A stretch of 64,000 nucleotides of DNA from Gemmatimonadota bacterium (GTDB taxonomy: Bacteria > Gemmatimonadota > Gemmatimonadetes > Palauibacterales > Palauibacteraceae). Below, piece by piece: positions 22,691 to 25,117 of this stretch. A program made the translations under genes and the position numbers. Each line of letters begins with the position of its first letter. Positions within the stretch are counted from its first letter, which is position 1. The notes beneath the pieces are model-generated. The model did not search any database, was not told the origin of the DNA, and worked only from the letters and a program-made list of their open reading frames with translations. The DNA is taken from NCBI GenBank assembly GCA_963666735.1, contig OY762926.1:3392001-3456000 (forward strand). The letters are read 5' to 3'.

Positions 22691-25117
22691 ATGGAAGCAC
22701 GTAGTTCCGGCACCTCGGTACCCCTGAGCGGGCGGGTGGTCGAACCATCCATCGCGAACGCGCTCCCGCACTTCGTTCCGCTCGCGATCTTCCCGCTCGT
22801 GGTCTGCGCCGCCATGTACGGCGGCTGGTGGATCGTGGGTCCTCTCGTCTTCTTCATGCTCGCAGGCCAGTTCGACAGGGCCTTCGGGCTGGAGGAGCGG
22901 AACATGGATCCGGCCACCACCCGCGAGAGCCAGCTGTTCCCGTACAAGCTCTCGCTGTGGCTGTGGGCGGCGTTCTGGCCGGTGACGTTTGTATTCTCGC
23001 TCTGGCAGATGCTGGCCGCCGGCCACCTCTCGCTCTGGGAAGTCGGGTTGATGGCCGCCGTGCTCACGACCGTGGCGCAGACGGTCTTCATCGTGGGCCA
23101 CGAACTGGTCCATCGGCGTGCGCTCTGGGAGCGCCGGCTCGGCGAGTTCCTGCTGGCTTCCGTCTCCTACCCGCATTATGCGACCGAGCACGTTTACATC
23201 CATCACCCCCGCGTATGTACGCCGCTCGACCCCGGTTCCGCACCGAAGGGAGTGAGCTTCTGGCAGTACCTGCCCGCGGAGGTGGCGAATAATCTGCTGG
23301 GCGCCTGGCGGTTCGAACGCCGCCGGCTGACGCGCCGCCACCTGCCGCTCTGGCACTACACGAACGCGTTCTGGCGCTACGCCGTGGAAATCGCCGTGTG
23401 GTACGGGCTGATCTTCCGGCTGGGCGGTCCGTGGGCCGCGCTGCTATACCTCCTTCTGTGCGGCAGCGTGGTCTTCTCGATGAAGATCAGCAACTACGTG
23501 CAGCATTACGGGCTTCGGCGCATCCGGATGCCCACCGGCAGGTTCGAGCCGGTCAAGCCGAGGCACGCCTGGAGCGCTGCCTACAAGTTCACCAACTGGC
23601 TTTACTACAACATGCAGCGCCACGCCGACCATCACACGTCAAACCGGCGCTATCCGCTGCTGCAGCATCATGGTGAGGCCGCCTCGCCGCAGCTGCCGGG
23701 CAGTTACATGCAGATGAACGGCCTGGCCCTCTTCCCCAAGCCGTGGTTCGAGACGATCGATCCCCTGCTCGATCGTCAGCGCGCCCAGTTCTATTCCGAG
23801 ATCGACGACTGGAGCGCGTACGACAGCCGCGCGTTCGCGGAGCGCCCCGACGCGTTCGACGTCATCGCCGAGATCCACGCCGCCGCCCCGCGCCTGGCGG
23901 GGTGGATAAACCGCTGGCCGCGACTGCTCGACACGCTGCGGGAGCGGGAATTCACGGACCTGGAACTGCCGGAGGGATTCCTGTCGGATCCGGAATCCGA
24001 GTCGATCGCCCGCTCCGGGTTGGCGCGCCTCTACTGGACGCACGAACTCAGCGTCTCCGAGATGAAGGACCAGCTCGCCGACATCCCCGTGCAGGACGCC
24101 GGCGAGGCGGTCGAGGCGGCGCTGGAGTGGTCGAATGCCAAGGTCTTCCAGGTCGCCGTGCACACGATGCGTCGCAGCCTGTCGGTGAGCGAGGCCGGCA
24201 TGGCGCTGTCGCGCATCGCCGAAGCTTCCATCGCCACCGTGCTGTCGGCCGTTGAGGAAGACTTCGCCGACCGGGGTGTGCCACACACCAGCGGTGGGGT
24301 GGCGGTGGCGGTTCTCGGGCCTCTGGCCGGCGGACAGGCGATGCCGGGGACGGAACTCGATGTCCGGTTTGTTTACGACGGCGGCCCCGCCAGGTACTAC
24401 GAAGCACTGTGCCGCCGCTTCCGCAAGGCGCTCCGTGCGCTGTCGCGCGACAACCTGCTGCTGGTGCCGGTCCCGCGCGGTGGCATCGGCGAGCTCAGTG
24501 CTCTCGATGCGTTCCGGGAACGGCTCCGGAACTCCGATTCGAGCGACGAGCTTGTGGCGCTCGCACGGGCGCGTTGTGTGTTCGTGTCGGGCGATGGCGA
24601 AATTGCGGATCGGTTCACGACGGCGTTACGAGACGCTCTGGGAGGGAGCACAGCTCGCGAGGCGCTGACGGTCGAGTTGCGCGAAGCCGCCGCGAGCGAA
24701 GTTGAGCTGGACCTGCTCTCGGTCGCCGACATGCCCGGCGGACTCCGGGATCTCGAGCGCGCCGCTCTGGCCCTGCAATGGGCGCCCGGCAGCGACGCGT
24801 CGGACACGCTGAACGGCGACCCGGCCTCGGTCTTCCGGGCTGCGGGCAGCCGCGGGCTGATCGCCGAAGATGCCGCGGAGCGGCTGGCGGAGGCGGCGAC
24901 ACTGTGGCGGAACCTGCACGGTTCGCTGCGGCTCATCGCCGACGACGGATTCACCGTCGACGCGGCGACCTCCACCGCAAAGACCGCGATCGCCGATGCG
25001 TGCGGAGTGGACGACTTCGAGACGCTCGCCGCGACGATCCGCGATACCGCATCCCGGGTCGCCGCCGGTCTCGACGCGCTCGTACACGAACCGCACCGTC
25101 CAGCCGACCGGCCGTAG
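22691..25117 (+). CDS. Fusion of an AlkB-type membrane di-iron hydroxylase/desaturase and a degenerate GlnE-like adenylyltransferase module
   Basis: His boxes HELVH, EHVYIHH, NYVQHYG, MQRHADHH; C-terminal half has APRLA...P.LLD.L, VAVLGPLAGG...TELD..FVYD, ALARAR and PGGLRDLE. Confidence 0.8.
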   Translation: MEARSSGTSVPLSGRVVEPSIANALPHFVPLAIFPLVVCAAMYGGWWIVGPLVFFMLAGQFDRAFGLEERNMDPATTRESQLFPYKLSLWLWAAFWPVTFVFSLWQMLAAGHLSLWEVGLMAAVLTTVAQTVFIVGHELVHRRALWERRLGEFLLASVSYPHYATEHVYIHHPRVCTPLDPGSAPKGVSFWQYLPAEVANNLLGAWRFERRRLTRRHLPLWHYTNAFWRYAVEIAVWYGLIFRLGGPWAALLYLLLCGSVVFSMKISNYVQHYGLRRIRMPTGRFEPVKPRHAWSAAYKFTNWLYYNMQRHADHHTSNRRYPLLQHHGEAASPQLPGSYMQMNGLALFPKPWFETIDPLLDRQRAQFYSEIDDWSAYDSRAFAERPDAFDVIAEIHAAAPRLAGWINRWPRLLDTLREREFTDLELPEGFLSDPESESIARSGLARLYWTHELSVSEMKDQLADIPVQDAGEAVEAALEWSNAKVFQVAVHTMRRSLSVSEAGMALSRIAEASIATVLSAVEEDFADRGVPHTSGGVAVAVLGPLAGGQAMPGTELDVRFVYDGGPARYYEALCRRFRKALRALSRDNLLLVPVPRGGIGELSALDAFRERLRNSDSSDELVALARARCVFVSGDGEIADRFTTALRDALGGSTAREALTVELREAAASEVELDLLSVADMPGGLRDLERAALALQWAPGSDASDTLNGDPASVFRAAGSRGLIAEDAAERLAEAATLWRNLHGSLRLIADDGFTVDAATSTAKTAIADACGVDDFETLAATIRDTASRVAAGLDALVHEPHRPADRP

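Follow-up and report, generated by a model that had tools for sequence, protein, structure and literature searches.

We identify, in a 64,000-nucleotide stretch of a Gemmatimonadota genome (contig OY762926.1, positions 3,392,001 to 3,456,000; the whole stretch is referred to as the window), an 808-codon gene that joins an AlkB-like membrane di-iron oxygenase to a catalytically dead C-terminal half of the adenylyltransferase GlnE. The fusion is real, and it combines known parts in a new way inside a known cluster type, the srp cluster for peptides that are ribosomally synthesized, then post-translationally modified (RiPPs). With middling confidence, we favor a pathway in which cyclisation and prenylation of the srp core peptide precede its oxidation: the fusion would oxidise the hydrophobic part at the membrane, with the GlnE-derived tail serving for docking or assembly and having no catalytic role. 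From the observed fold, residues, selection and co-occurrence of the fusion, we infer its substrate, reaction, electron donor and tail partner.

Architecture of the fusion protein

The fusion gene contains the following features.

22691..25117, plus strand: fusion gene, AlkB-like membrane di-iron domain followed by a pseudo-GlnE tail, 808 aa, open over 808 codons
22739..23830, plus strand: domain with the AlkB fold (aa 17-380), nine His as iron ligands and Q271 in place of Glu (VIA Z 32.7 to 8F6T, residue tallies)
23483..23485, plus strand: K265 (residue tallies)
23804..25093, plus strand: pseudo-GlnE tail (aa 372-801), equivalent to E. coli GlnE 522-946, that is, the end of the central region and the adenylyl-transferring (AT) domain (VIA, Pfam, ESM Atlas)
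23948..24037, plus strand: insertion of about 30 aa in the tail (pattern search)
24317..24475, plus strand: degenerate nucleotidyltransferase site with GPLAGG and TELD, lacking the third Asp and the RLRP loop (alignment)
24731..25090, plus strand: C-terminal helical bundle of the tail (Pfam, locus comparison)

Pfam assigns aa 115-321 to FA_desaturase (E 1e-20), aa 456-638 to GlnE (E 2e-8) and aa 682-791 to a helical bundle of the GlnD_UR_UTase type found in GlnD and GlnE. The top NCBIfam model is the GlnE model PRK14108, which scores far under its cut-off. A sequence search of the PDB returns AlkB 8F6T (E 6e-50) and the AT domain of E. coli GlnE, 3K7D (E 1e-4), and the ESM Atlas feature matches of the tail are all GlnE. 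Superimposing the AlphaFold2 model (AF2; pLDDT 85, pTM 0.83) on known structures aligns aa 17-380 with 8F6T (VIA Z 32.7, root-mean-square deviation (rmsd) 3.0, 341 residues aligned) and aa 372-801 with 3K7D (Z 26.9, rmsd 3.7, 368 residues aligned). The high pTM suggests that the two halves are held in a fixed arrangement in the predicted structure. The structural match to 3K7D starts at aa 372, and the likeness to GlnE therefore begins near nt 23805, in agreement with the start at about nt 23820 proposed in the initial annotation. That annotation had read the C-terminal part as the C-terminal half of GlnE, on which the Pfam, PDB and structural matches agree.

The junction is bridged by contigs from all four sequencing runs considered (4/4, from 4 studies) and contains no indel; two of these contigs show 0 differences. 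Together with the many homologous fusions, these independent contigs rule out an assembly chimera or a frameshift, and thus dispel the concern that the fusion might be unique to one assembly or unsupported by reads. The GC content at third codon positions is 0.82-0.91 over three segments of the gene. A contig of the RNA run X20 also crosses the junction; as this library may hold DNA, it is not counted as proof of expression. A promoter and terminator scan of 22500-22760 found neither.

The fusion accompanies the srp precursor across phyla

The best 120 of 688 database matches are all fusions, of 608-830 aa, and the closest named one among them comes from Candidatus Palauibacter (94% identity). 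Fusions of about 800 aa are found down to 32% identity. We compared 80 loci, which belong to Gemmatimonadota (48), Acidobacteriota (16), Pseudomonadota (10), Actinomycetota (2), Nitrospirota (2) and Chloroflexota (1), with one unassigned. Public runs containing this DNA include sponge metagenomes, and most of the other carrier genomes are presumably sponge symbionts, judging by their record titles and the lineages to which they belong.

The srp genes lie within 10 kb of the fusion in 60 of the 80 loci, and 12 of the remaining 20 loci end at contig ends. In a set of 50 carrier genomes, covering 50 of the 80 loci, the srp precursor is present in 46, across phyla. In the host class, 201 genomes were sampled: the fusion is carried by 21, and the precursor by exactly these 21. 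Three further weak fusion matches in these genomes are one standalone frame of AlkB length and two frames of GlnE length. Of the 22 genomes in the host genus, half (11) have both genes and the other 11 neither. The link to the neighboring RiPP genes, proposed in the initial annotation, is thereby well supported.

The fusion is retained through at least six gene orders and often stands directly upstream of the YcaO gene on the same strand. In one protein, P0177, part of the fusion is combined with a C39-ABC transporter; it is probably a deletion or a chimera, and it shows that the genes were adjacent. A gammaproteobacterial genome holds a standalone 380-aa desaturase-like gene (L091:3678-4820) 4 kb from its fusion and srp cluster. 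Loci L090 and L092 turned out to contain no second fusion copy.

The oxygenase half resembles AlkB with an altered active site

We tallied the residues of the oxygenase half in 136 fusions and in 65 standalone AlkB relatives. The four AlkB His boxes predicted for the window sequence are all present, HELVH at 23099, EHVYIHH at 23186, NYVQHYG at 23492 and QRHADHH at 23615. They supply the iron ligands H137, H141, H167, H171, H172, H272, H311, H314 and H315, a set complete in 135 of the 136 fusions. The Glu of the HYG motif near the iron is replaced by Gln (Q271) in 131 fusions and kept in 5, and Gln at this position is not unique to the fusions, since 13/65 standalone relatives have it too. The five fusions that retain Glu are divergent, suggesting that the change arose inside the family. 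The active-site Glu of AlkB has been proposed to protonate oxygen (available text of PMC10113152).

The fusion is alike to Fontimonas thermophila AlkB (FtAlkB, 8SBB) and AlkBG (8F6T) in fold, in the nine His and in four of the six Arg that dock the electron carrier AlkG, a rubredoxin. It differs from FtAlkB, as described in the available text of PMC10110569 and PMC10113152, at the vestibule, where L274, L315 and L318 align with M264, Y305 and M308. The polar residues Q130 and Y305 belong to this region. Next to the vestibule positions, residue 265 is Lys or Arg in 136/136 fusions, in contrast to the Glu of 57/65 standalone relatives. In place of rubredoxin, the fusion bears the GlnE-derived tail; rubredoxin is found in only 5 of the 50 carriers, and a search of this genome (94% complete) did not find it. 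We conclude that the fusion probably works like AlkB, but with another substrate and another electron donor. The closest standalone relatives of the oxygenase half are proteins of ordinary AlkB length. We do not class the fusion as an AlkB.

The tail is a pseudoenzyme whose helical start is under selection

In comparison with GlnE, represented by the E. coli AT half (3K7D) and adenylyl-removing (AR) half (1V4A), the tail shares the AT-half fold, with its helical N-terminal part, nucleotidyltransferase sheet and C-terminal bundle. It forms a single GlnE Pfam stretch, lacking the AR domain and hence the two-domain AR and AT architecture. It also lacks the catalytic Lys and the first and third Asp, and possesses an insertion of about 30 aa and a membrane-enzyme tether.

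The nucleotidyltransferase motifs are degenerate, as the initial annotation noted, reading GPLAGG at 24317 and TELD at 24350, with the D-x-RLRP loop missing near 24452. In aligned columns, none of the 136 fusions keeps the catalytic Lys of GKLG or the third Asp, only 4 keep the first Asp of DxD, which is Glu in 97, and 126 keep the second acid. A few tails match D.R.RP or GKxG as regular expressions, at positions off the catalytic alignment columns. Our findings support the idea that the GlnE module is dead. It is hardly credible that the tail has kept nucleotidyltransferase activity towards another acceptor: the intact fold and the E-x-D pair would speak for it, and the absent Lys and third Asp, the near-absent first Asp and the frequent deletion of the C-terminal bundle speak against it, as do 63 further tails borne by other proteins (described below), none of which keeps both acids or the third Asp.

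In order to locate the constrained regions, we pooled Nei-Gojobori estimates of the nonsynonymous to synonymous rate ratio (dN/dS) over 34 non-overlapping locus pairs (33 for aa 641-680 and 23 for the last bundle). The ratio is 0.17 in the AlkB half, 0.19 in aa 366-455 and 0.21 in aa 456-530, and it rises to 0.35 in the nucleotidyltransferase core, 0.61 in aa 641-680 and 0.40 in the last bundle. Therefore, selection keeps the helical start of the tail and not its active site. The insertion, which is absent from ordinary GlnE, sits in this most constrained part. The C-terminal helical bundle is dispensable, missing in 22 of 78 loci, one of which is a broken gene. A by-eye comparison of tail truncation with core type (W or G) revealed no relation.

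The tail is shared with RND permeases and probably derives from AT-dead GlnE

A search of proteins longer than 1370 aa reveals 63 clusters of AcrB-type RND permeases, of about 1520 aa, that end in the same tail at about the same junction. This family (P0190, P0272-P0334) has few named members, which come from Gammaproteobacteria metagenome-assembled genomes (MAGs). The insertion pattern is found in 128/136 AlkB fusions, 59/63 RND fusions and 55/59 full-length GlnEs of the donor type, and in 0/3 insertion-free GlnEs. These 59 insertion-carrying GlnEs (P0185, P0352-P0409), retrieved by a search with the insertion, all have intact AR motifs, and their AT motifs are intact in only 16, leaving 43 AT-dead, or 'AR-only'. 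A Rhodobacteraceae MAG is the named source of one of them, and the donor lineage seems to be alphaproteobacterial.

We built a tail tree of 72 rows with the insertion columns removed (quick IQ-TREE run, LG+G4, SH-aLRT support only), leaving out L086, which is in the wrong frame, P0146, P0150 and L089; a companion tree left out L086. The insertion-bearing sequences form one clade (SH-aLRT 100). Within it, the AlkB tails (98) and the RND tails (100) are sisters (98), placed among the AT-dead GlnEs (85-93), and the companion tree shows the same pattern. A single origin of both tails is likely on these sequences, although not proven, because degenerate sequences can attract each other. The order of events would be a gain of the insertion, loss of AT function inside GlnE, a single detachment of the C-terminal half, and its attachment to two membrane proteins. 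If so, live GlnE, AT-dead GlnE and the tails now found on AlkB and RND document clearly how a pseudoenzyme was reused, and the databases still contain the intermediates.

The initial annotation had offered two roles for the tail, a glutamine or PII sensor and a docking scaffold. We consider it improbable that the tail senses nitrogen or energy status (glutamine, ATP or PII) and gates the oxygenase and the RND pump. In its favor, the glutamine-responsive site of GlnE is placed in the C-terminal part in the available text of bioRxiv 10.64898/2026.09.02.748916, the tail includes the end of the GlnE central region, and the 43 AT-dead donors keep the dead AT beside an intact AR as a sensor might. 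On the other hand, the same text reports that glutamine binding to GlnE requires MgATP, while the tail has lost the Mg/ATP residues and its nucleotide pocket is under relaxed selection. It also cites R. rubrum GlnE as insensitive to glutamine, which bears on a donor lineage of alphaproteobacterial appearance. PII is present in just 25 of the 50 carriers and canonical GlnE in 19. This 94%-complete genome yields no PII match, and it holds one glutamine synthetase with no GlnE match found other than the fusion. The docking scaffold, the other half of the earlier proposal, fits the data.

Tentatively, we extend the docking idea to both protein families. In sponge symbionts, the dead, insertion-marked GlnE domain could have become a portable cytoplasmic docking tag, present on at least two unrelated inner-membrane proteins (the AlkB-type oxygenase and the RND pump) and binding a partner common to both, which might be an electron donor different from rubredoxin. 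In that case, the oxygenase would be a membrane di-iron RiPP maturase that finishes the srp product.

The srp-type cluster and the proposed pathway

Downstream of the fusion, the window contains the following genes.

25139..28342, plus strand: AcrB-type RND permease without the tail, 21 bp downstream of the fusion (Pfam)
28387..31329, minus strand: NHLP export ABC transporter 2 (TIGR03797, E 1e-193)
31317..33545, minus strand: NHLP C39 peptidase/ABC transporter 1 (TIGR03796, E 4e-255)
33547..33876, minus strand: short HlyD-like secretion protein, 109 aa (TIGR03794, E 5e-5)
33935..34222, plus strand: SrpE-type NHLP precursor, 95 aa, leader ending in AAG, core LCCCG (sequence)
34335..35459, minus strand: protein without a Pfam match, predicted ABBA (PT-barrel) prenyltransferase fold (AF2 pLDDT 90, Foldseek)
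35484..37841, minus strand: SrpC-type YcaO cyclodehydratase (PF02624, E 3e-97; TIGR03604)
37848..39185, minus strand: FAD-linked oxidase (Pfam)

The srp gene clusters (SrpE, SrpC, SrpI) are reportedly sponge-derived RiPP proteusins, first treated by Nguyen and colleagues in JACS in 2021.

Related precursors end in the cores LCCCW, LCCCG, LCCCGV/L/I, LSCSG and LSCCT, and the first Leu is constant in every complete core. In the available parts of PMC10858898 and PMC10286304, the SrpE core LCCCW is cyclised by SrpC and brominated by SrpI. A tblastn search of this genome with the L037 halogenase returned no SrpI match, which fits a core that lacks Trp and ends in Gly. The cluster is thus an srp-type variant rather than a canonical one, having the NHLP tri-Cys precursor, the YcaO protein and the exporters and lacking the brominase and the C-terminal Trp.

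The matches listed by Foldseek for the model of 34335..35459 are all ABBA prenyltransferases (best E 2e-6, TM-score about 0.5). This class of enzymes includes the cyanobactin enzyme PagF, and the predicted fold is shared with it at 7-15% identity. At other loci, a cyclase-like gene encodes an NHLP-headed protein with a weak squalene-hopene-cyclase match (E 5e-6). The ABBA-fold gene, the cyclase-like gene or both are present in 50 of the 51 YcaO-bearing loci. No cluster type lacks the fusion; each terpene-type gene, in contrast, is confined to some of them.

On the basis of these genes, we propose the following pathway. The YcaO enzyme would first form thiazolines on the core, L-C-C-C-X. An isoprenoid would next be attached by the ABBA enzyme or, in other clusters, by the cyclase-like protein. 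The di-iron centre, situated at the inner membrane, would then hydroxylate or desaturate the hydrophobic (prenyl or alkyl) part, receiving its electrons from some donor that is not rubredoxin. The tail would be an exapted cytoplasmic module with no catalytic function, which packs against the enzyme and is engaged in neither adenylylation nor a PII relay. Its insertion helix may offer a surface for docking or assembly, be it of the electron donor, of a pathway partner or of the tail itself. The product would presumably resemble the prenylated linear cyanobactins.

Several observations weigh against this pathway. The Q271 substitution could reduce or alter oxygenase activity. Both acids at the DxD position (E-x-D) are left in 97/136 fusions, and residual metal or ligand binding by the tail is therefore compatible with the sequences. 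At eight loci of full length, srp genes are absent within 10 kb, and the precursor was not found in 4 of the 50 carriers (L021, L052, L065 and L072, the fusion being broken in L072); these may be remnants, or the fusion may have a second role. Linked genes travel together and related genomes are not independent, so that co-occurrence alone cannot prove a role in the pathway. Finally, the one RND-tail locus inspected (L081:10001-14575) has an adaptor gene upstream of the RND gene and no srp genes, indicating that the role of the tail is general rather than specific to srp. A predicted complex of fusion aa 15-800 with the precursor scored 0.00, which counts neither for nor against binding.

The oxygenase might instead act on the peptide itself, oxidising the side chain of the N-terminal Leu, or desaturating or oxidatively decarboxylating the C-terminus, with K/R265 holding the carboxylate. 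We regard this as possible but doubtful. The constant first Leu together with a variable last residue (W, G, GV, GL, GI or T) would suit it, as would the basic residue at 265, the polar Q130 and Y305, and the presence of the fusion in cluster types that differ in their terpene-type genes. Against it stand the near-universal terpene-type gene of the YcaO loci and the vestibules of AlkB, which are narrow hydrophobic tunnels opening to the membrane (available text of PMC10110569 and PMC10113152).

Alternatively, the enzyme could modify a membrane or host lipid and merely ride with the srp cluster, the tail being a folding or stability passenger of an old fusion. The carriers without a precursor, the frequent loss of the C-terminal bundle and the ordinary AlkB length of the closest standalone relatives agree with this idea. 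The exact co-occurrence in 201 genomes and the retention of the fusion through many rearrangements in six phyla disagree with it. A passenger would also hardly persist on a second, unrelated protein (RND), and purifying selection on aa 366-530 is near that on the enzyme. We find this alternative unlikely, and the oxidation of a prenylated srp peptide is the reading that we carry forward.

As for the other genes, the HlyD-like protein of the window, at 109 aa, is shorter than most homologs at other loci (about 180-330 aa). The FAD-linked oxidase also stands beside srp genes in 5/80 loci and in L091. The tail-less RND permease of the window has 37-38% identity to its best-matching tail-bearing RNDs; a specific pairing with them is not supported, as it is one of four similar paralogs in the genome and not the closest.

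Comparison with known systems

The srp clusters described in the available parts of PMC10858898, PMC10286304 and PMC9426513 share with the window the NHLP precursor with an LCCC core, the YcaO enzyme, the NHLP ABC exporters and the spread among sponge symbionts. They differ in that the window core ends in Gly and SrpI was not found in this genome. No AlkB-GlnE gene is described in those parts of the three papers. Such a gene may already appear, generically named, in the original srp cluster map. The AlkB fusions listed by Nie et al. 2014 (PMC4021335, as available in part) involve only rubredoxin and ferredoxin/reductase. Our literature search, which left most subscription papers outside, found no paper on an AlkB-GlnE fusion and no membrane di-iron RiPP maturase in print.

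Few biosynthetic loci are shared as widely in sponge microbiomes as the srp cluster. The srp peptide chemistry described in the available text of PMC10858898 and PMC10286304 comprises only cyclodehydration and bromination. Since an oxygenase matches the precursor exactly in its occurrence and lies beside a predicted prenyltransferase, the real srp product is probably an oxidised lipopeptide. This tells chemists which masses to seek and which genes to add in reconstitution.

Other regions of the window

Upstream of the fusion and on the same strand, 16637-22583 encodes a pyrroloquinoline quinone (PQQ) dehydrogenase, an acyltransferase-3 and a choice-of-anchor-B/FG-GAP protein, and only some 10 loci, all closely related, have these genes next to the fusion. 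Three open reading frames at 14748-16271 (211, 151 and 122 aa) group together with one protein of 844 aa in L006; they represent a split or broken gene without a Pfam match. The segment 8838-12201 has a lower GC content (0.59-0.63), carries a GmrSD-N protein and an AAA ATPase/DUF3696 gene, and resembles a defence island.

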